From contig OMIX01000089.1 of the NCBI GenBank assembly GCA_900299195.1, positions 2,892 to 66,891 on the forward strand: a stretch of DNA of 64,000 bases, read 5' to 3'. The position numbers and the translations under genes were made by a program. The first letter of the stretch is position 1. Every line of letters begins with the position of its first letter. This DNA is from Deltaproteobacteria bacterium. Lineage in GTDB: Bacteria; Bdellovibrionota; FAC87; UBA2466. Of the stretch, positions 21,014-39,144 are shown piece after piece. The notes below the pieces were generated by a model. The model did no database searches. It was not told the DNA's origin and worked only from the letters and a program-made list of their open reading frames with translations.

Positions 21014-22471
21014 TTAAAGGTTCAAATCCTCAACGCGGGACGAGAGACTGCGAAGAAAATCTTCTAACGCAGCTATTTCATGTTCACTCAAATTCAATGG
21101 CTTTAGCGTTTCCTCTCTAAAACCTACTCCAGAATGAGTCTCCATTTTGTTGTAGTGCTCCAGGACTTCCCTTAAAGTCTTCAATCTACCATCTCTCATG
21201 TATGGAGCAGTCTCTGCTACATTTCTTAGAGTCGGGGTTTTGAACGAACCAATCGCCTCTGGAGTTTCACTGTCCAAGAAATTGAGATCCCGACAGCTTT
21301 CGCTTTTTTGTCTTGAAGAATCTTTCAAAAATATTCCTTGGCAATTAAATCGGTCTTTTTTGACGGTCAACACACCTAAACTTCTCCCTAAATCAAACGG
21401 AGCCTGGCTTTGCGGAAGTCCAATATTGTGAAATTGATTGTCTTTAAAGTAGGGACCACTGTGACAAACATGGCAGGCCCCTTTTCCTAAAAAGATTTGA
21501 AACCCTAGAAACTCAGAGAAATTGAATTTCTCACTAAAATGAACTCTGGGGTCCGGATTTGAACTCTGCATCCACCTGCGGATAAATTGATCGAAAGCAG
21601 AATCTCTGGCAACAATGCCCTTTTCAAAGGCTTCAAAAGCCAGTCCAACGTTTGAGAAAACCCTATCTAACTCAAATCTTTGTTCACGATTCATTCTCCA
21701 GTAGTTAACTGATAATACATCTCCTTTTTGTGGAGATTGATTTCTTAATTTCTGGCGGAACTGTCGGATTTGCTGGGGTGAAAGTGTCAATTCATTCGAG
21801 CCGATTTCAGAGAGCAACTTTGGATTATCTGCTGAAACCATCGTATTTCTCACTACCCCATCAGAAAATTGAGGGCGTTCCCGCAAGGGACGCGCTTTAA
21901 AAGGGAGTGCCTTTTCCAATATTTTTGGAAAGGGGCCAAAAAGATTTTCGTAATCACTACGGGAGTTGTTTAAAATCCAGAAAGCTAATTCGGAACGAGT
22001 CAACCCCTGTTCACCCTCATCCTCAATGGGATTCAACGATTGTGCCGCCAACGAATCGGTGCGACCATCCCAGTAAAACCAAAAACTTGAAAAACTATTG
22101 ATGATAGTTGGGGTATTACGATCTCGTTGAGTTAAACCCTGTGCAGTAGTTTTACCATCCGTAAAGGATAGTTCTGGTTTATGACATGTCGCGCACGAAA
22201 TTTTCCCATTCTTGGATAAGCCAGTCTCGAAAAATAATTTTCTACCCCAATGAGCTAGTTCCCGATCTCTAGGGGTCAACTCGGGATCTTGGAAAACAAA
22301 AAACTGAGCCAACTTCCTAAGTTCGTTATCTGCCAATGGCTTGTTACCCATGGCGTCCCTTAACAATCTAGCCTGCTCTTTGGGAATCATGATGTACCGC
22401 CTGATGCCCACCATCCCAAGGACAATCAAAATCCATAAAAATAAAGTCAGCGAAAGTTTTTTAGAAATCAT
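21014..22471 (-). CDS. Di-haem cytochrome c peroxidase (CCP/MauG family) with N-terminal membrane anchor
   Basis: CATCHKPELSFTDG, RNTPTIIN, WDGR, second haem CHVCHSGPYFKDNQFHNIG, FKTPTLRNVAETAPYMRDG. Confidence 0.85.
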   Translation of the reverse strand: MISKKLSLTLFLWILIVLGMVGIRRYIMIPKEQARLLRDAMGNKPLADNELRKLAQFFVFQDPELTPRDRELAHWGRKLFFETGLSKNGKISCATCHKPELSFTDGKTTAQGLTQRDRNTPTIINSFSSFWFYWDGRTDSLAAQSLNPIEDEGEQGLTRSELAFWILNNSRSDYENLFGPFPKILEKALPFKARPLRERPQFSDGVVRNTMVSADNPKLLSEIGSNELTLSPQQIRQFRQKLRNQSPQKGDVLSVNYWRMNREQRFELDRVFSNVGLAFEAFEKGIVARDSAFDQFIRRWMQSSNPDPRVHFSEKFNFSEFLGFQIFLGKGACHVCHSGPYFKDNQFHNIGLPQSQAPFDLGRSLGVLTVKKDRFNCQGIFLKDSSRQKSESCRDLNFLDSETPEAIGSFKTPTLRNVAETAPYMRDGRLKTLREVLEHYNKMETHSGVGFREETLKPLNLSEHEIAALEDFLRSLSSRVEDLNL

Positions 22472-22887
22472 TTGTTATCAATGTTTAAAGGAGTTTCAAT
22501 TCGAGTGGTCCCTGTTTTATCCTTAATCAAAAACTGCAGTAACCAATTTCCCGGCATGTGAAACCTGACACCCTCCACCCGATACTCCAGCCTCGAAATT
22601 TTAATCACTTTGGCCTTAGTTACCATTCCATGGTTATGCTGGGGCATTCTGGCATCAAAGGTAAAATCGAGCACCTCCCCCGCCTGTTTCTCAATAGGAA
22701 GCAATGAAACTATCCATGTCGTATGCCGATTTAATTGAAATAGTTCAGCACCTTTTTCAGCTGCCTTGATAGATATTTGAAAGTTGGGAGTCCTCCATTC
22801 ATAAGCCAACCCCAGAGACGAAAAAAAACCAAAACTCATTATCCAAAGGCAACTGTAGCGGAAACAATTCAAAGATTTTTTCATCAT
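22468..22887 (-). CDS. Small periplasmic YtkA/FixH-like protein (putative metal-binding beta-sandwich)
   Basis: Signal peptide. MPQHNHGM and FHMPGNWLLQF blocks resemble the YtkA-like domain. ATGA overlap with the peroxidase gene. Confidence 0.45.
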   Translation of the reverse strand: MMKKSLNCFRYSCLWIMSFGFFSSLGLAYEWRTPNFQISIKAAEKGAELFQLNRHTTWIVSLLPIEKQAGEVLDFTFDARMPQHNHGMVTKAKVIKISRLEYRVEGVRFHMPGNWLLQFLIKDKTGTTRIETPLNIDNK

Positions 22888-22919
22888 AGTAATGATAATA
22901 TATCAGTCAGGATCTTAAG

Positions 22920-23978
22920 ATGACAATTCTACAAAAGAACAATTACCTGATTCGGTTTATTTGTTTTATATTCACATCGCTCTTTGCCTCATCAGCCCTT
23001 TCCAGTGATGGGCCTCAAAATAGTGGCCGTCTTCAATTGAAGGCCTCTCAGAACCACCAAGTCGAAGCTATCCTCCAAGTAGATCGGAAAGCGCTTCAAG
23101 AACTTTTTTCAACAGCTAATACAGAAAAAGCGGCTGAGTTTCTGAATTTCTTTTGGGTCAGTTCGCAAGAAGCTATCTGTCCAATGGCCTCCCCGTCTTC
23201 GTTGGCTAATGAAAATACTATCTCAACTACATTTATTCTGAATTGTCCTAAAGCTCCAGAACAACTTAAAATTCAACTCACCCAACTTGAATCACTGCCT
23301 AAGGGGTTCTCCCTAGGAGTAAGAACAAACTTTGAGCATTTTGTTTTGGATATTGATAATACCCAAAAAGAAACTTTTTTAAGTCCTTTTCAAATATTTT
23401 TTCGATCAGGTCTTTCGATATTTAGCTTTTTGGGAGCCCATTCCCAAGGATCACCGTTGGCTCTCTCACAACTTGGACGCCCGTTTCCGCTCTATTTTGG
23501 TGGGCTCAGTATTTTACCAGTGGGAATTTGGTGGCTTTTATTAGTGGCCGCGATTGGTGTATCAAATTTGAAATTTAAGCAAAAAGTATTAGCGGTAGGA
23601 ATGGCTATTTTTTTCTCGGGTTGGGTAGCTTACTTCATTTTGTTTTCTCAAATGTCACTCAGACTTCTTTCTGTTAACCAAATTAGTTTTAGTTACTTGG
23701 CCTGCATTTCCTATCTCACCTTTTTGAGTTTTCGAACCCCAACTGAGCAACAAAAGAAGGGGTGCCTGTTTTTGTTGATCGTACTTTCAATTTTTAGTGG
23801 ATTTGAATTTAGCCTGATGTTGAGATGGCTTGAAGGAAACCGGACAGTTCCTCTGGGAATTTGCATCTCGAGTTTTTTTGCTGGGCTCACACTCAACACC
23901 GCTATTCTCATGACTGCTTTTCTTATTTTAGGGTTTAGTCTTTATTCAGCGATAGCCTTGGCTTTTAAACTCATGTGA
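22920..23978 (+). CDS. Polytopic membrane protein with N-terminal periplasmic domain, unknown function
   Basis: Signal peptide, ~170 aa soluble region, then ~6 hydrophobic helices. Divergent from the YtkA-like/peroxidase pair. Confidence 0.5.
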   Translation: MTILQKNNYLIRFICFIFTSLFASSALSSDGPQNSGRLQLKASQNHQVEAILQVDRKALQELFSTANTEKAAEFLNFFWVSSQEAICPMASPSSLANENTISTTFILNCPKAPEQLKIQLTQLESLPKGFSLGVRTNFEHFVLDIDNTQKETFLSPFQIFFRSGLSIFSFLGAHSQGSPLALSQLGRPFPLYFGGLSILPVGIWWLLLVAAIGVSNLKFKQKVLAVGMAIFFSGWVAYFILFSQMSLRLLSVNQISFSYLACISYLTFLSFRTPTEQQKKGCLFLLIVLSIFSGFEFSLMLRWLEGNRTVPLGICISSFFAGLTLNTAILMTAFLILGFSLYSAIALAFKLM

Positions 23979-24057: not shown

Positions 24058-25665
24058 TCAGGGGGTAGTGCTGCTCTTCTTAAAAATTAAGGAACGACTG
24101 CTGTTGTTTTTTATAAAATGATTCCCCTCAAAAGGTAATAAAGGTGATAATAAATTGAACGGACTAAGTCTTAACTCAATGGAATTGGCGGTCTCTCTGT
24201 TGCCAACGAGATAACGGTCTTTTTGATCTAAAAATAGAGCAATTCTTCCCGTATAAAAATCATAACTACCGCCTCGAAAGTCTTTGGCTGGCCAAAAGGA
24301 TTCGGTATGAATCATTCGTCCCACAAAATTCAATGGAGAAAATGGATTTTCCAAGTTGGAAGGTATTTTCTCAGCTGCGACTCCCACGTTAATTAACAAA
24401 TTATCAAAAGTATATGTACCGGAGAGAGACCCCACTGTAATTTTGTCGGTTGGAAGTTGAGGAAGTTTTGATTTCTGAAAGTAAAAAGTTCCCACCCTCC
24501 CAAAAAGTAGTGAATACCAAACCCCCTCGATAAAATCCTCATTAGCATTCGTAATTTCTAAGACCGCATCCATCTCGTTCACTTCAGTTAATGTGGGTTT
24601 GGCTAAGACAAAATGATTTGAATCTTCGGATAAAAAAACGGGGTCGTAGCGGTAAGTGAGAGCTTCTTGAGATTTAAAATCTCCAAAATAAAGTCTAAAC
24701 AAAGTTGAAAGCCCTATGGGTCCACCTTCGGTTTTTGGAGGCACTATAAAAAAATCTAAGTCAGCTGCTTGATACTCATTAAGCAACTCGTGATGAACAT
24801 ACCCTATGTAAGCGCCCTCCAACTTTCGAGGCTCGATAGTTCTTCTTTGGGAATGCTGGGGAAATTCAGAAGCGGTTGCGAAAAGTTGGGTATGAACCGA
24901 TGCATCCTCACTGGAAGTTTTTTTGTACTGACACGAACCACAGGTCATCCCAGATTCATTAATCAGACAATGCTGATTTTCATACCTACCAAAGAGATCT
25001 AGATTTTGGGTGTAGAAATTATAGGCTCCTGAGAAAAACAAGTTACGAACACAGTAATTGGTTTCCGTACATTGATTTGGGTTTTCAACTCCTATCTCGC
25101 CCACAATTTCATAGTCTGAAAAGGGATGGCCCGTTTTAGTCGTTTCTTGAATACTTCGATAAGTATAGAGCTGAAGCTTTTCTTTTTTGCCTGAGCAAAC
25201 TCCTTCATATTCTCCCCAAAGGGCATCTATCAGGGGATATTTCAGAGCCACTTTTCCATCTTTTCTTAAAATAAGTTCAGGGTGATCCGTAGTGAAGCTC
25301 GTTCGCAAAGTTCCTTTGAGCTCTTCTTCAGAAAACTTAGGAAAGGAAACACTAACCTCTTGATTGATTTGGTCAAAGACTAGCCAATCTCCATGAAGAT
25401 GAGCTGTATCAAAGTGAAAAGAAACATACTCCCGGCTTTTTAAATCACCAAAATAGAACTTGAGAAGCCCTAACCAACTGGAAGGCACTTCAGATTGCGG
25501 ATTAGCTACCAAATCCAAAGTGACATATTGGTCCCTCTGAATCGAATGATGACGAAGGACTCCAGTATATCGAAGTGAAGGAAGAGACGCTCCGGGAGAG
25601 GCAATAGTGAGCAACAATCCTAAAATAAATGATAGTTTGAATTGTTTTTGGAACGTCATTCTCAA
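24058..25665 (-). CDS. Exported protein of unknown function with an internal two-fold duplication
   Basis: Signal peptide. Blocks LLKFYFGDLKSREYVSFHFD and LFRLYFGDFKSQEALTYRYD lie ~250 aa apart within alignable modules. Confidence 0.55.
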   Translation of the reverse strand: MRMTFQKQFKLSFILGLLLTIASPGASLPSLRYTGVLRHHSIQRDQYVTLDLVANPQSEVPSSWLGLLKFYFGDLKSREYVSFHFDTAHLHGDWLVFDQINQEVSVSFPKFSEEELKGTLRTSFTTDHPELILRKDGKVALKYPLIDALWGEYEGVCSGKKEKLQLYTYRSIQETTKTGHPFSDYEIVGEIGVENPNQCTETNYCVRNLFFSGAYNFYTQNLDLFGRYENQHCLINESGMTCGSCQYKKTSSEDASVHTQLFATASEFPQHSQRRTIEPRKLEGAYIGYVHHELLNEYQAADLDFFIVPPKTEGGPIGLSTLFRLYFGDFKSQEALTYRYDPVFLSEDSNHFVLAKPTLTEVNEMDAVLEITNANEDFIEGVWYSLLFGRVGTFYFQKSKLPQLPTDKITVGSLSGTYTFDNLLINVGVAAEKIPSNLENPFSPLNFVGRMIHTESFWPAKDFRGGSYDFYTGRIALFLDQKDRYLVGNRETANSIELRLSPFNLLSPLLPFEGNHFIKNNSSRSLIFKKSSTTP

Positions 25666-26123: not shown

Positions 26124-26400
26124 AAGTACTCCTTAAAAAAGTTACCCCTTTCTAACAGAAAATAACACATTGCGCAACCTGCGCTTTAAGGAATGCTGAC
26201 CTTCCCCCTTAATTAGTGTCAGTTTATGGCTTTAATTACAGCTTACAAGAGCACCACGGCTACTCTTCAACCTTGGTACTGTGAAGGAAATTTTTTGAGA
26301 GCCTCAGCGTAGGCAGGAGTAAGTCGTAAAAAATAATGTCCATTAATATTTTGCACTTCGCCCTACTCCAATGCTCAACATGACAAATTGTTTTTTGTAA

Positions 26401-27645
26401 TCAGTGCTGCGCTGAATGTTCTGTAGCGAGTCTAGCAAAAGATTTCAAACAACGTCGGCTGCCCAAATTAAAGACAAGACTTTCATCCCGAGTTGGCTCC
26501 CCACTGACAAATTCATTAAGATTCTCTTTGTCGAGTAAGCCGGTATTTTGATAAGCCTTGCCGAAGGTCTCGGGAAATGCTTTAGCCACGGCATGAACTC
26601 GTTTGACGGGATCTACTTTAAAAGCACTTTCTAAAAACCGTTCCTTTTCCTTATCCAACTCCGTAGTTGGCGGAAGGAGCTCCCTGAGTTTGGAATTGAC
26701 GAAAGATTCGAAGTCGGTTGCTGCCCGCTTGTTCGAAAGTAATAGCCGAGTGCCCCTTGAGAATAAATCATTAGAATCGACTGAAGAGTTTTTAAATTGA
26801 ATCTGGAAATACATTAACAATAGCGGTTTTCTAAAAAGTTCATGACTGATGGATTGCGCCTGTGAAAACAAATCCTCTGAAGGAACATTTGAGAGCCTTT
26901 GTTGGTAATGTAAACGCTCCGGTGCTGCATAGGACGGAGTAAACATGATGACCTTGGATGTTCCAGTCTCAGAGACACTATCAAGATCCCCAAGCCTTGC
27001 TTGGGCACCCATTATGTTATTACTTTTTAAAAGAAAGTAATTGGAAGGCTTAATGTCTCCATGAACAAGATTATTTGAGTGAAGCGCAAGAAGAGCCCCT
27101 TGACCAGCAAGAAATAAAAGATCAGAACGAATAATTCTTTGGTCTTCAGATAGCCTTTCTGGTTTTTTTGTCTCAAAGGTTCCTTTGGCAAGTGTGGAAC
27201 GGACGACGAATTCAGAACCTTCATATGCGTGCTGCTTCAACCACACTTCTTGAGTGGGTTCATAATTCAGAAAGAAACTCGGATTTGAATCCATTAACTT
27301 GCGATGTTGCGGGCTTCCGTAAAACTGTAAGCTATCTTTACCAGACAGTATTAAGTTGTTCTTTTGATCGCGTATCGGCCTGGCGAATTTCATCGCTTGG
27401 ATCTGTTTGGATCGAGCGCATCCCGAAAGGCACTCCACCTGGTAAACCTCGCCGGAACTACCCTTTCCTAGTATCTTAATAATTTTATACTCGCGATTAT
27501 CTTTATCCACCCAAACTTCCCCGGGTTGGACGGCGTGAATAGTTTTGTAGCACCCAACGAGAAAAAAGAATGTTAAAATAATCCCGAAGCCGAACTCTCG
27601 ACCTTTTTCTAGCGACCGTGCAGTCTTGTGGAGCTCAGGGCGCAT
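26401..27645 (-). CDS. Hanks-type Ser/Thr protein kinase with N-terminal lipoprotein-like signal/anchor
   Basis: G-loop GKGSSGEV, Lys in AMKF, catalytic loop HGDIKPSN, GDLD in place of DFG, YAAPE. N-terminal hydrophobic segment ends in the lipobox-like LVGC. Confidence 0.75.
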   Translation of the reverse strand: MRPELHKTARSLEKGREFGFGIILTFFFLVGCYKTIHAVQPGEVWVDKDNREYKIIKILGKGSSGEVYQVECLSGCARSKQIQAMKFARPIRDQKNNLILSGKDSLQFYGSPQHRKLMDSNPSFFLNYEPTQEVWLKQHAYEGSEFVVRSTLAKGTFETKKPERLSEDQRIIRSDLLFLAGQGALLALHSNNLVHGDIKPSNYFLLKSNNIMGAQARLGDLDSVSETGTSKVIMFTPSYAAPERLHYQQRLSNVPSEDLFSQAQSISHELFRKPLLLMYFQIQFKNSSVDSNDLFSRGTRLLLSNKRAATDFESFVNSKLRELLPPTTELDKEKERFLESAFKVDPVKRVHAVAKAFPETFGKAYQNTGLLDKENLNEFVSGEPTRDESLVFNLGSRRCLKSFARLATEHSAQH

Positions 27646-28411
27646 AATATCCCAGTACGGCTCTTGTCATATCAAAGTCACGTTCATTTTCGATAAATAA
27701 TATTTTGCGATATTCCGTAGCATCCTCAATCATATTATTCATGGGATCTGCGATAAGATTGCTTTTTGGAAGATAAACAAAGACATGGGAAAATGTTGGT
27801 TCGTTTTTTTCTTCTCGAGCATCTGCAACTCTTAGCTCTGCTTCGATCCCAAGTTGTTTAAGAATTTTATATAAAATGGTGGCCTTGTGGCGGCAAACTC
27901 CTCTATCTTTGACACGGGAATCAAGAAAACTCGAGGCAAAACGAACTGTGTTGGGATGGAGAACCAAAGTAGACCACACGATTTGACCACCTTTTCCATC
28001 ATCACTGGGATCTCCTCCGTAGAGTTTGCTAATAAACATCTTCAATATTTGTTTTAGGTTTTGACCTGAATACTTCAGTAACTCTCTTTCTTCCGCTGTT
28101 AAGTGAGAAACAATATTGTCCCAATCAAAGTAAATACCAAACCCGATGTGAGGTGCCTGACGAGTAAACGACTGGATTTGGTGTATCAAAATGGGAATAG
28201 CTCCAACAGCGGTTAAAGTACCGCCTAATCCGACAATTCTTGTTAAAGTTTGCCGACAGGAGTAGCGAGTAGCAGTTGACTGGATCGAATCCGAAAGGAA
28301 TACAGTTCTCTCGCCTTTTATTTTTTCGATATCTGAAATTTCCAAGCCTAGGGCGCCGATATTTGTTAGACAGATACAAATAAATACGATACTTCCACGG
28401 TATCTCAGCAT
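27635..28411 (-). CDS. Exported/membrane transglutaminase-like (Cys-His-Asp) protein
   Basis: GVCRHKATILYKILKQLGIEAELRV .. FSHVFVYLP .. IADP fits the transglutaminase-like core pattern. N-terminal signal plus one internal hydrophobic helix. 11-nt overlap with the kinase gene. Confidence 0.45.
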   Translation of the reverse strand: MLRYRGSIVFICICLTNIGALGLEISDIEKIKGERTVFLSDSIQSTATRYSCRQTLTRIVGLGGTLTAVGAIPILIHQIQSFTRQAPHIGFGIYFDWDNIVSHLTAEERELLKYSGQNLKQILKMFISKLYGGDPSDDGKGGQIVWSTLVLHPNTVRFASSFLDSRVKDRGVCRHKATILYKILKQLGIEAELRVADAREEKNEPTFSHVFVYLPKSNLIADPMNNMIEDATEYRKILFIENERDFDMTRAVLGYYAP

Positions 28412-28556
28412 ACCAAAGCCTTTCTTTGCCCCATTTCTTCTTGGTTAATGCAAATGGGATTCCATGAAAGAGAGATTAAAAAAGCTTTTTTTTCATAGTT
28501 TGAGTTGATCGGGGATAAGACAGAGATTTTTACCAAAGCATTAAAATCGAAAGAGT

Positions 28557-29270
28557 TTACTTTGATGGGACAGATCCGCTTTGTTGGATTGGAATAAGAT
28601 AGACATGGGTATAACCTAGTTCTTGAAGTTGCTTTTTAAACGAGCGGGAAGTTTCTGAGTCGCGAATAAGAATAATTTTATCCCGGTGGGTAATCATTCC
28701 ATGGGTAGCAGTACTGATAGCTTTTTTTAATTGGGTTCGACTCCAATTTTCACTCTTTGCCTTTTCTATCATTTCGCTATGGATCGATTGGGCTCGTTTA
28801 AAATCGGGAGGATTTGATACTTCAATTTCGATCGATTCTTTTAGGGTGATTAAGCTTGGAATTTCTTGGGAAATAGGAAATCCGCTCGCCTTCGAAATAG
28901 GGATGAGATGATTGTTGAGTACGTCCGAACGATCCAGAAGAACTAAGGGGCTAGGGGGGTTCTTAAAAAAGAACATGACATCTAAATCGCTTTTTTGTTC
29001 GGGAGAGTATCCGTAACTGAAATGGGTTCTGCTTCCAAAAAGCACCATCGCCTCAACATCACTAAAGTCTGGGTTGTTTTTGAAGATATCTATGAGCTCA
29101 TTGAGTTGGTTTTGGCTCATACCCATCGGGGTGGGAATGCCCTGATATCGCTTGGCTTCGAAGTTAAGAAGCTCACGGCAGTTAGTTTTGGGAATGGCAA
29201 GAGAGTAATGGCACACAAGCCCAAATGTCATAATAATAGACAGAGCTATATGTTTTTTTACAGTATTCAT
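28557..29270 (-). CDS. Secreted nucleotidyltransferase-fold (Pol-beta superfamily) protein
   Basis: LFGSRTHFSYGYSPEQKSDLDVMF = hG[GS]-x(n)-DhD motif. The start at 29270 gives signal peptide MNTVKKHIALSIIMTFGLVCHYSLA; the track start 29303 is an alternative. Confidence 0.45.
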   Translation of the reverse strand: MNTVKKHIALSIIMTFGLVCHYSLAIPKTNCRELLNFEAKRYQGIPTPMGMSQNQLNELIDIFKNNPDFSDVEAMVLFGSRTHFSYGYSPEQKSDLDVMFFFKNPPSPLVLLDRSDVLNNHLIPISKASGFPISQEIPSLITLKESIEIEVSNPPDFKRAQSIHSEMIEKAKSENWSRTQLKKAISTATHGMITHRDKIILIRDSETSRSFKKQLQELGYTHVYLIPIQQSGSVPSK

Positions 29271-29362
29271 CGTTTTCTGACTCAATTCCAAATGCCAAAA
29301 CATTTAGGCTGCAATAGAAAGGCCGATTTTTGAGGAAAGGATGTCTCCGGAATGTACCCGGA

Positions 29363-29439
29363 TGGTGGGCGCCACAGGACTCGAACCTGTGACCTCTGCC
29401 GTGTGAAGGCAGCGCTCTAACCAGCTGAGCTAGGCGCCC
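29363..29439 (-). tRNA. tRNA-Val (anticodon CAC), CCA encoded
   Basis: Hand-folded cloverleaf: acceptor GGGCGCC/GGCGCCC, D stem GCTC/GAGC, anticodon stem CTGCC/GGCAG with loop TTCACAC, T arm ACAGG-TTCGAGT-CCTGT. Confidence 0.9.
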
Positions 29440-29471
29440 TCGATAAGTTCCATATTAGAAATTTTAATTTT

Positions 29472-29555
29472 TGGTGCGACGGGGGGGACTTGAACCCCCA
29501 CGCCTTTCAGCACATGCACCTCAAACATGCGTGTCTGCCATTCCACCACCGTCGC
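29472..29555 (-). tRNA. tRNA-Leu (anticodon GAG), class II with long variable arm, CCA encoded
   Basis: Acceptor GCGACGG/CCGTCGC, anticodon stem CATGT/GCATG with loop TTGAGGT, 13-nt variable arm, T arm GGGGG-TTCAAGT-CCCCC. Confidence 0.9.
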
Positions 29556-37701: not shown

Positions 37702-39144
37702 TTACTGTTTTGGAGTTTCAAGTTGATATAAAGACTCATCTTCAGAAAACGCAGGAGCCTTAGGCTCAGAGGCTCCTCCCTCTTTTGAAGAAGGCTCAGT
37801 AGAATTCATTTGATTGCTGTCGGATTCAGGCAATTGTTTTTTAACAGGTTCAGATATTTCAGATTCTTTTGGAATCTCAGTATGGGGATCTGATGGAGTT
37901 AATTCTAAAGAAGAATCAATTTTGGGATCGATAGGCGCCTTGGGCACCAATTTAATCTCAACCTCAGGGCTTCCCCCTTCAATCTTTTTCCCTTTGATTT
38001 TAGATTTGAAAGAGCCATTAGGAGCTCCTAACCCCAGAGCCAAAGTTAAAGCATATCTTCGACTGGGTAAACGACCCGGCCCACTTGACAACTCTTCTTG
38101 ATAAGTCGCGAAATCTAATTTGGCATAGGTCAGGTTAACACCTAATCCCACTGAAACATAACCTTGATGAATACCCGTTCTTACAGTCAACGCTCCTACG
38201 GGAACCTCAATCCCAAGATTTAGATGCTTTAAAATTTTTCCAGACCGAGCCCCCAAATGTGGATCGCTCTCTCCACCTAATTGAAACTCGGCAAGATCAG
38301 CCATCACATGATAGTGATCTACTAAATCACCTCCAGAGAAAACAGAATGCCAACCAATTGAAAAAGTACGGGTAAGACCAGGAGGTTGACCGGTGCTTTT
38401 GCTTCCCATAGAAAATGAGCTTGCAAGCAAATTACTCACTACAAATGAAATTCGATTAGCTTGTCCAAAGTCTAAATAGGGAATGTCGTACATGACTCCT
38501 AAATCAAAATCGATCCCAAATCCAGTTCCGCCAAGATCTTTGGGATTCAAATTCACTTTGTCGCCTTGAACCAAATCAGCCAAAGTTAAATTGACTCTGC
38601 CTCCGCTGCGAAGAATCCCTTTTGCCGTTAATCCGATGTGGGTATATTCATTACCCACGGTTCTTCCATAGCTAACCAGCAGTCCGGAATCGATAATTCC
38701 AGTGAAATCGACACTCGAATCGAGTTCTTTCCCAGAGAGCAAATAATCGGCTTTAACATCTCCTAGCAAAACTCCCACAGCTAAATGCTTCATTAAGAAA
38801 TAAGGTAGAACAGAGCCCCCTAAGTAAAGAGGATCTCCTTGATATTGAGCTAAAGCATCAATCGAATCGGCTAAGGATTTTGAAGACAGAGTCTTTTTAG
38901 TTTCAAAGGCAGCAAAAGTACGATTACCGACTTGACTACCGAAATTCACCATCGATTGTGTTTTACCTTGATAAAGGCTAACGCCGGCGGGATTGTAGAA
39001 CAGTGCGTACTCATCATCCGACCGCCCGTAGAACGCCCCCCCCATTCCCAAGGCGCGAATGCTTCGACTGATACCGTAGAACTCTCTCATCGCGAATGTT
39101 GGGACTACAAAAGATAGACATATGAGAAGGGTCAGTCTTTTCAT
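37702..39144 (-). CDS. Outer-membrane beta-barrel protein (paralog of 13651-14973) with a long disordered C-terminal tail
   Basis: Signal peptide. RSIRALGMGGAFYGRSDDEYALFYNPAGVS signature. TAATG 1-nt overlap with the upstream lipoprotein gene. Confidence 0.65.
   Translation of the reverse strand: MKRLTLLICLSFVVPTFAMREFYGISRSIRALGMGGAFYGRSDDEYALFYNPAGVSLYQGKTQSMVNFGSQVGNRTFAAFETKKTLSSKSLADSIDALAQYQGDPLYLGGSVLPYFLMKHLAVGVLLGDVKADYLLSGKELDSSVDFTGIIDSGLLVSYGRTVGNEYTHIGLTAKGILRSGGRVNLTLADLVQGDKVNLNPKDLGGTGFGIDFDLGVMYDIPYLDFGQANRISFVVSNLLASSFSMGSKSTGQPPGLTRTFSIGWHSVFSGGDLVDHYHVMADLAEFQLGGESDPHLGARSGKILKHLNLGIEVPVGALTVRTGIHQGYVSVGLGVNLTYAKLDFATYQEELSSGPGRLPSRRYALTLALGLGAPNGSFKSKIKGKKIEGGSPEVEIKLVPKAPIDPKIDSSLELTPSDPHTEIPKESEISEPVKKQLPESDSNQMNSTEPSSKEGGASEPKAPAFSEDESLYQLETPKQ

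Follow-up and report, generated by a model that had tools for sequence, protein, structure and literature searches.

A predicted signal peptide-bearing, non-RD Hanks-type kinase encoded in a strain-variable two-gene cassette of an uncultured Deltaproteobacteria bacterium

We studied a stretch of 64,000 nucleotides from an uncultured Deltaproteobacteria bacterium (assembly GCA_900299195.1, contig OMIX01000089.1, positions 2,892 to 66,891), hereafter called the window, and in it a gene for a putative Hanks-type or eukaryotic-type (ePK) protein kinase. The gene is a single open reading frame (ORF) on the minus strand at 26401..27645, with an ATG start and a product of 414 amino acids (aa); the identical protein (P0001 in our sequence set) was found on four public contigs. 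A partner gene lies upstream and its end shares 11 nt (ATGCGCCCTGA) with the kinase start; the two genes make up a cassette that some strains carry and others lack (see below). The positions of all these features are collected in Table 1. The protein matched the Pfam family PF00069 with an E-value of 4e-13 and a score of 49.8 bits, the cut-off being 31.7; the match runs through positions 1-254 of the 263 in the profile. The Pfam scan found no second domain in the protein. An AlphaFold2 model built from a 37-sequence alignment had a mean predicted local distance difference test score (pLDDT) of 83 and a predicted template modelling score of 0.82, with poor confidence limited to aa 1-34 and 388-414. 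All Foldseek matches to this model were protein kinases, and the modelled fold was bilobal. The kinase assignment is far above chance, and on these sequence matches the protein belongs to the Hanks/ePK superfamily. A preliminary description of this DNA had regarded the last ~130 aa as a region with no recognisable fold. This did not hold, as the model is confident to about aa 385 and extra helices at ~275-345 lie within the kinase C-lobe; they behave as a C-lobe insert, since the model is confident to that point and Foldseek returned kinases alone. The tail beyond the kinase fold is only ~27 aa long.

The preliminary description had also listed the motifs GKGSSGEV, AMK, KPSN and APE, and translation of the gene placed all of them where it had put them. 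It had further called the catalytic motifs non-canonical, with HGD in place of HRD and GDLD in place of DFG. Both changes are present, but the term overstates them, as K86, D197, N202 and D220 are invariant: D197 corresponds to the catalytic base and D220 to the Asp of DFG, and the only residues replaced are Arg in HRD and Gly in DFG. When the protein was aligned with canonical kinases, positions K86, H195, D197, N202, D220, P242, D258 and R349 were invariant and G60, G62, A84, K199 and E243 nearly so, and across 37 kinases G60, G62, K86, D197, N202, D220, E243, D258 and R349 were kept. In the alignment of 14 sequences from the clade described below (A4), the invariant residues were G62, K86, H195, D197, N202, D220, D222, P242, E243, D258 and R349; pairwise identity among these sequences is just ~20-25%, and invariance of the catalytic residues at such distances argues for selection on catalysis. 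The C-lobe network specific to ePKs was kept as well, with E243 in APE, D258 in subdomain IX and R349 in subdomain XI. Read from the alignments, HGD is the non-RD form of the catalytic loop and GDLD a DFG with Phe→Leu and Gly→Asp replacements, the latter (D222) being a fixed character of the clade. Dependence on an activation-loop phosphate is therefore not expected. By its sequence, the gene probably encodes a complete, predicted-active eukaryotic-type kinase.

The N-terminus of the protein contains its single hydrophobic 19-residue segment with a Kyte-Doolittle mean above 1.6 (aa 18-36, 1.79). The next-best segment scored 1.25 and corresponds to the αE helix of the kinase core, and by this measure no hydrophobic segment was found past aa 45. 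These values agree with the earlier statement that the sole hydrophobic segment is N-terminal and ends in the lipobox LVGC. The arrangement MRPELHKTARSLEKGRE-FGFGIILTFFFLVG-C32 conformed to the PROSITE lipoprotein rule PS51257 (lipobox [LVI][ASTVI][GAS]C, Cys at position 15-35, K or R within the first seven residues and an uncharged h-region), with R2 and K7 supplying the required basic residues. Just four of the 58 ORFs of the window passed this rule, and the remaining three (with lipoboxes LISC, MIGC and LTSC) were obvious lipoproteins. The 15 residues past the h-region have a net charge of 0 or -1, according to the residue chosen as the start of the flank; together with the n-region of net +2 and the 14-residue h-region, this predicts an N-in/C-out orientation, which would leave the kinase domain outside the cytoplasm. 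A candidate alternative site for signal peptidase I, IHA/VQPGEVW (aa 38/39, the slash marking the cut), aligned with the VFA/VEVGEVY site of the related kinase P0098, and export is predicted with either site, the lipobox Cys32 or aa 38/39. No alternative ATG, GTG or TTG codon lies between the kinase start and the hydrophobic segment. What had been termed an inverted architecture is borne out as far as the N-terminal position of the segment goes, and is better described as a signal peptide followed by a stand-alone kinase, with no transmembrane segment or sensor after it. The two alternatives left by that description, a lipid-anchored exported kinase and an N-in anchored cytoplasmic kinase, fared differently: the sequence favours the former, whereas the latter contradicts itself, since a single N-terminal span that is N-in puts the kinase outside. 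A cytoplasmic kinase would need the N-out/C-in orientation, which is disfavoured by the charge distribution.

The window kinase is nearly an orphan. A word-indexed search of 5.8 billion clusters returned just the kinase itself and one homologue, P0002 (39% identity), and phmmer, run exhaustively against 1.84 billion representatives, gave the same two proteins at E<1e-10. A GTDB genome scan with the window kinase found no relative, a JGI metagenome scan with patterns from the closest trio found no match, and a JGI scan with a pattern for the HGD loop gave generic kinases only (E~1e-7); a word-indexed profile search contributed one further member, P0151. The gene of P0002 (contig L003, 430-1638) has been called from the Met of its AMK motif. 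Its frame runs on upstream, and the extension encodes a hydrophobic N-terminus, a VGEIW motif and the glycine-rich loop, with no ATG, GTG or TTG start in it on L003; the gene may use a rare start codon or be truncated, or the assembly may be in error.

Weaker matches yielded a loose clade of ~17 members (P0001, P0002, P0018, P0025, P0037, P0043, P0065, P0085, P0086, P0088, P0096, P0098, P0107, P0114, P0147, P0151 and the fragment P0008). The clade is rare, previously undescribed and known from metagenomic singletons alone. Its members have in common an invariant D-[LF]-D motif, a non-RD catalytic loop, N-terminal signal peptides and a Cys near the C-terminus. At the third DFG position, the kinase matches surveyed divided into 19 with DxD and 111 with DxG, which makes an Asp there rare among them. 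Most members of the clade open, on reading of their sequences, with classical signal peptides directly before the kinase N-lobe; their predicted cleavage sites (VPWVQA/VE, PLSAFA/RD, SQASWA/QY, SPVTSA/NS, TVFA/VE) follow a Pro-x(3-5)-small-x-small pattern, and 11 of 12 members have an n-region with a net positive charge. When a crude rule was applied to the same match list, a signal-like N-terminus was found in 10 of the 19 DxD kinases (11 with the upstream extension of P0002 included) vs 11 of the 111 DxG kinases (Fisher p = 5e-5), and only about two of the latter 11, P0072 and P0143, were convincing. These two are canonical HRD/DFG kinases with a signal peptide and then a domain of ~150 aa, and signal-peptide-bearing Pkinase proteins may, judging from such sequences, not be confined to the DxD clade. 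One clade member, P0018, is a fusion of a signal peptide, a J-domain (with HPD) and a DLD kinase. A J-domain is expected to need an Hsp70 and we know of no Hsp70 outside cytoplasms, which hints that some clade members act in another cell's cytoplasm. A separate protein of 447 aa with a signal peptide and a J-domain (contig L084, 1916-3259) is encoded 4.7 kb from the clade kinase P0098; J-domains, if exported, would imply that they act where Hsp70 is present. The gene of another member, P0037, is located after tolA-like and tolB genes.

The C-terminal Cys sets the clade apart from other kinases: a Cys lies 3-33 residues from the C-terminus in 17 of 17 members vs 59 of 197 other kinases (p = 6e-9). 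It is followed by a short amphipathic tail of the form C-x3-Φ-x2-Φ, and in nine of the 17 members it is the sole Cys of the protein. CaaX or CTERM sorting was rejected for this residue given its variable distance from the end and a tail that is not hydrophobic, and an intramolecular disulfide was rejected given the nine proteins with no other Cys. An intermolecular disulfide formed in an oxidising compartment is possible, as is a lipidation or adduct site.

The partner gene encodes 258 aa and, besides its signal-peptide-like N-terminus, has a second hydrophobic stretch at aa ~60-80. Only two homologues of it were found in the 5.8 billion clusters, and C173, H209 and D222 are invariant in them. 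Pfam gave a sub-threshold Transglut_core match over the Cys region, and the AlphaFold2 model of the partner had a pLDDT of 34. From the Cys-His-Asp triad and this sub-threshold match, the partner looks transglutaminase- or papain-like. A tblastn search found no partner homologue on the 3.6-kb contig L003 that carries P0002.

The cassette formed by both genes is replaced by about 29-35 bp in two independent assemblies, L089 (GCA_046089625.1, contig JBJSYF010000361.1; positions 2884-2912) and L093 (SRR9924802; positions 304-338). In these, the gene for a 248-aa protein is joined directly to a gene for a 124-aa protein, and the flanks are 94-98.5% identical to the window. Two other samples contain the cassette at 99.9% identity. 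Because of this presence/absence polymorphism among strains, we consider the kinase and its partner an accessory two-gene cassette. No terminal direct or inverted repeats were found at the junctions and no GC deviation, and with both signs absent a mobile-element mechanism was rejected. Promoter and terminator scans gave nothing above background. A cassette present or absent between near-identical strains could also be one of anti-phage defence, with a kinase of the PD-T4-6, MADS MAD6 or Stk2-like types fitting a strain-variable island, and PADLOC indeed gave matches to mad6 (E 1e-12) and PD-T4-6 (1e-8), as NCBIfam did to MAD6 (E 5e-6). These matches, however, were confined to aa ~184-249, the generic stretch of the catalytic loop; the NCBIfam MAD6 score was 25 bits against a family cut-off of 460, PADLOC applies no curated cut-offs, and its models matched no defence family in the partner or the neighbours. 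Since a cytoplasmic defence kinase is not expected to carry a signal peptide either, a defence role seems very improbable to us.

The 248-aa gene next to the cassette was found in strains with and without it. Its product has a signal peptide, probably starting from Met12, and a GS...SDLDV stretch with a Polβ match in Pfam that is below threshold (E 5e-4); if that signature is real, the protein would be a second nucleoside triphosphate-using enzyme with an export signal beside the cassette. A co-directional run of orphan genes of 248, 258, [kinase], 124 and 535 aa has signal-peptide-like N-termini. This orphan island begins directly past a conserved gap-pgk-tpiA-secG-tRNA-Leu(gag)-tRNA-Val(cac) block. 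The nearest species representative, with a phosphoglycerate kinase (PGK) that is 63% identical, retains secG-tRNA-Leu(gag) (contig L004, 12474-12557) and lacks the island genes; with everything beyond the tRNA being different, the island corresponds to a tRNA-proximal variable region. In L089, a HTH_3 gene and a gene for a 99-aa protein lie upstream of the 248-aa gene, neither of them found anywhere in the window. The metagenome-assembled genome (MAG) to which L089 belongs, GCA_046089625.1, carries close relatives of several window proteins. The PGK of the organism is ~50% identical to those of MAGs of many phyla, including some labelled Bdellovibrionales/Pseudobdellovibrionaceae and Myxococcota.

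Table 1 Features of the kinase locus, with positions in the window
Feature	Position	Strand	Basis
Kinase gene, 414 aa + stop	26401..27645 (stop codon 26401-26403)	-	ORF list, Pfam Pkinase match
Predicted signal peptide, aa 1-31: n-region MRPELHKTARSLEKGRE (net +2), h-region FGFGIILTFFFLVG (14 aa)	27553..27645	-	hydropathy, charge, PS51257
Lipobox LVGC, aa 29-32, with Cys32 as predicted lipidation site	27550..27561	-	PS51257 rule, translation
Confidently modelled fold, aa ~40-385	26491-27528	-	AlphaFold2
Protein kinase domain, Pfam-matched aa 53-352	26590..27489	-	Pfam PF00069
Glycine-rich loop GKGSSGEV, aa 60-67 (G60, G62)	27445..27468	-	alignments, translation
β3 lysine K86 in AMK	27388..27390	-	invariant in alignments A2 and A4
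Catalytic loop HGDIKPSN (non-RD), aa 195-202	27040..27063	-	alignments, translation
DLD replacing DFG, within GDLD aa 219-222	26980..26988	-	alignments, translation
APE motif, aa 241-243 (P242, E243)	26917..26925	-	alignments, translation
C-terminal tail, aa 386-414, with C399 (26449-26451) in RRCLKSFARL, low model confidence	26404..26490	-	alignments, model
Partner gene, 258 aa, signal-peptide-like N-terminus, C173/H209/D222 triad	27635..28411	-	ORF list, alignment
Strain-variable cassette (partner + kinase), 2,322 bp	26217..28538	.	blastn junctions
Flanking 248-aa predicted-exported protein, weak Polβ nucleotidyltransferase signature	28557..29303	-	Pfam, strain comparison
tRNA-Val(cac) + tRNA-Leu(gag), ending the gap-pgk-tpiA-secG block	29363..29555	-	tRNA annotation, comparison

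We compared the window kinase with the kinase systems it most resembles or departs from. Receptor kinases such as PknB and Stk1 have an N-terminal cytoplasmic kinase domain followed by a transmembrane segment and an extracellular sensor (PASTA and others), and keep RD and DFG; the window kinase, in contrast, has a signal peptide and lipobox before the kinase domain, no later transmembrane segment or sensor, and HGD and DLD motifs. It scored 15.7 bits with the NCBIfam PknB_PASTA model, whose cut-off is 450, and is not a PknB-type receptor kinase. The known bacterial Hanks kinases that act extracellularly are injected by type III or type IV secretion systems (T3SS, T4SS), the others being understood as cytoplasmic catalytic domains that are either soluble or sensor-coupled. 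Like the injected effector kinases YpkA/YopO, LegK1-4/7, CstK, SteC and NleH/OspG, the window kinase would be a stand-alone, island-encoded accessory protein that acts outside its producer and may be constitutively active, as those often are. Effector kinases use T3SS or T4SS signals, and a review of them makes no mention of signal peptides or lipoproteins (PMC9950578). The window kinase differs from them by its Sec/lipoprotein-type signal, it scored 15.3 bits with the NCBIfam LegK1 model (cut-off 550), and its sequence gave no recognisable membership of the families of T3SS/T4SS effector kinases or of defence kinases.

A signal peptide with a kinase placed in an extracytoplasmic compartment is also the design of Fam20C and VLK/PKDCC, a likeness that would be one of architecture and logic alone: the fold of Fam20 kinases is atypical and divergent and their ATP comes from the Golgi lumen, whereas the periplasm has no comparable known ATP pool. 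Plant and animal non-RD kinases likewise lack the Arg of HRD, implying regulation independent of activation-loop phosphorylation. In the phmmer alignment, DLGLG of Nek7 stands opposite GDLD of the window kinase and the Phe→Leu change is common to both, but the clade has an invariant Asp as the third residue of DFG, unlike the Gly of Nek7 DLG. In the literature searched, no bacterial Hanks kinase exported by a Sec or lipoprotein signal, no DxD variant and no Cys tail of this kind was found described, which does not prove that no description exists.

Fold and family, catalytic residues, signal-peptide features, clade characters, rarity and the cassette polymorphism are the observed data; from them we infer export, lipidation, activity, an ATP source and a target for the kinase. 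Our proposal, evenly balanced between being right and wrong, is that it would be a non-RD Ser/Thr kinase, catalytically competent, exported by Sec and probably lipid-anchored, whose role is accessory and like that of an effector. The stand-alone Hanks-type protein would leave the cytoplasm via Sec and most likely be anchored by lipid at Cys32 after processing by signal peptidase II, or alternatively be released by cleavage at Ala38, and its kinase domain would act outside the producer cytoplasm, be it in the periplasm, on the surface of the cell or on vesicles, or inside another cell. It would be co-transcribed with the putatively exported Cys-His-Asp transglutaminase-like partner from the 2.3-kb accessory cassette. 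Being non-RD, it would be constitutively competent and could phosphorylate envelope or non-self targets wherever ATP is present, such as inside a target cell or in the lysate of one. Such features would point to an effector-like accessory role and away from transmembrane signalling. The same architecture, a signal peptide before the N-lobe, D-[LF]-D, H-[G/A/S/N/T/H]-D, a helical C-lobe insert and a lone-Cys tail, would characterize the relatives. With more hesitation, and leaning towards doubt, we extend the proposal to the whole group: an undescribed clade of Sec-exported Hanks kinases active outside the producer cytoplasm, of which the window kinase would be the best preserved.

Several points weigh against this proposal. 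The case for export was built on sequence rules and on sequences read by eye. With 17 aa, the n-region of the window kinase is unusually long, and its charge is mixed; the lipobox is not conserved in the relatives, most of which show sites of the signal peptidase I type. Conserved surroundings were looked for and rejected, as the gene contexts of P0037, P0151, P0098, P0086 and P0096 all differ, and so was a conserved pairing of partner and kinase, as both partner homologues are encoded away from kinases. The part of the window ORFs that was scanned contained no recognisable gene of a secretion system. The bacterial periplasm is regarded as devoid of ATP, and every Pkinase domain in a large survey of bacterial kinomes was predicted to be cytoplasmic (PMC11032199), so an exported kinase would need a source of ATP. 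The same survey and the confinement of ATP to the cytoplasm would suit a different topology, in which the N-terminal segment stays uncleaved as an N-out/C-in anchor, like that of the J-protein DjlA, and tethers a sensor-less kinase to the membrane from the cytoplasmic side. The long n-region with its mixed charge fits such an anchor too; some relatives have uncharged stretches of 17-23 residues that could span the membrane, and the downstream flanks are positive in P0037, P0043 and P0114. We nevertheless hold a tether to be unlikely. The hydrophobic core of the window kinase has just 14-16 residues and ends in a lipobox that obeys the rule, the positive charge is N-terminal of the core in 11 of 12 clade members, Pro/Gly breaks precede small-x-small sites in the relatives, as is typical where signal peptides are cleaved, and the neighbouring genes encode predicted-exported proteins.

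Activity must be weighed separately from export, and here too there is evidence that counts against the proposal. At the column of the αC Glu, no acidic residue was found in the window kinase with MAFFT or in a profile alignment to S6K1; the canonical Glu aligns to S111, with Q113 one turn away, and in the alignment no conserved acidic residue occupies the column across the clade. On this comparison, the missing Glu appears to be a more serious deviation than the HGD and GDLD changes, and because it cannot be aligned and the Gly of DFG is lost, activity of the window kinase is not assured. The preliminary description mentioned neither this deviation nor the lone C-terminal Cys. These two losses, together with low AlphaFold2 confidence around aa 95-110 of the N-lobe, are also what would be expected of an exported pseudokinase or scaffold, or of a kinase whose substrate is an envelope lipid, a glycan or a small molecule rather than protein. 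HGD...N with D-x-[DE] recalls, as we take it, small-molecule kinases of the aminoglycoside, choline and CotS types. The selection on catalysis indicated by the alignment of the clade (see above) bears on the pseudokinase and scaffold forms of this explanation, and the match to the protein kinase family, the kept ePK network in the C-lobe and the Foldseek results bear on all of them; we judge the explanation improbable, somewhat more so than a cytoplasmic tether.

Should the clade prove to consist of exported kinases, it would be a bacterial counterpart of Fam20C/VLK, or a group of inter-cellular effector kinases delivered by Sec, the type II secretion system or vesicles, and it would run counter to the view that, for want of periplasmic ATP, no bacterial Pkinase domain lies outside the cytoplasm. 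The fusion of signal peptide, J-domain and kinase would suit action inside another cell. A kinase clade with Sec/lipoprotein signals raises the questions of where its ATP comes from, what the DxD site and the C-terminal Cys do, and whether extracytoplasmic protein phosphorylation is an unrecognised tool in inter-bacterial or host interactions. If the kinase is cytoplasmic after all, it would merely be a divergent, sensor-less, membrane-tethered kinase. The case is amenable to testing, given a small protein, a confident model and natural strains with and without the cassette.

Some observations were made elsewhere in the window. Two paralogous predicted-exported proteins, encoded at 13651-14988 and 37702-39144 (both on the minus strand), are 39% identical (E 4e-110) and have in common the N-terminal motif (K/R)EFYxxSRSxRxxGMGGAFYG; one of them had a weak DUF5723 match. 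The 535-aa orphan of the run described above, also predicted to be exported (24058-25665, minus strand), contains an internal duplication, LGLLKFYFGDLKSREYVSFHFD and LSTLFRLYFGDFKSQEALTYRYD, and its L089 counterpart consists of two separate ORFs, of 130 and 416 aa. Between this gene and that of a 352-aa protein there is a ~44-bp indel or rearrangement (window 23918-23930 vs contig L001 13729-13772) in assemblies that are otherwise 99.9% identical. Most other window ORFs scanned had no Pfam match, fitting a deep uncultured lineage. The region 21014-23978 contains a di-haem cytochrome c peroxidase/MauG-like gene and a YtkA-like gene of 139 aa that overlap by 4 nt (22468-22471), both of them facing a divergently transcribed gene for a multi-pass membrane protein.

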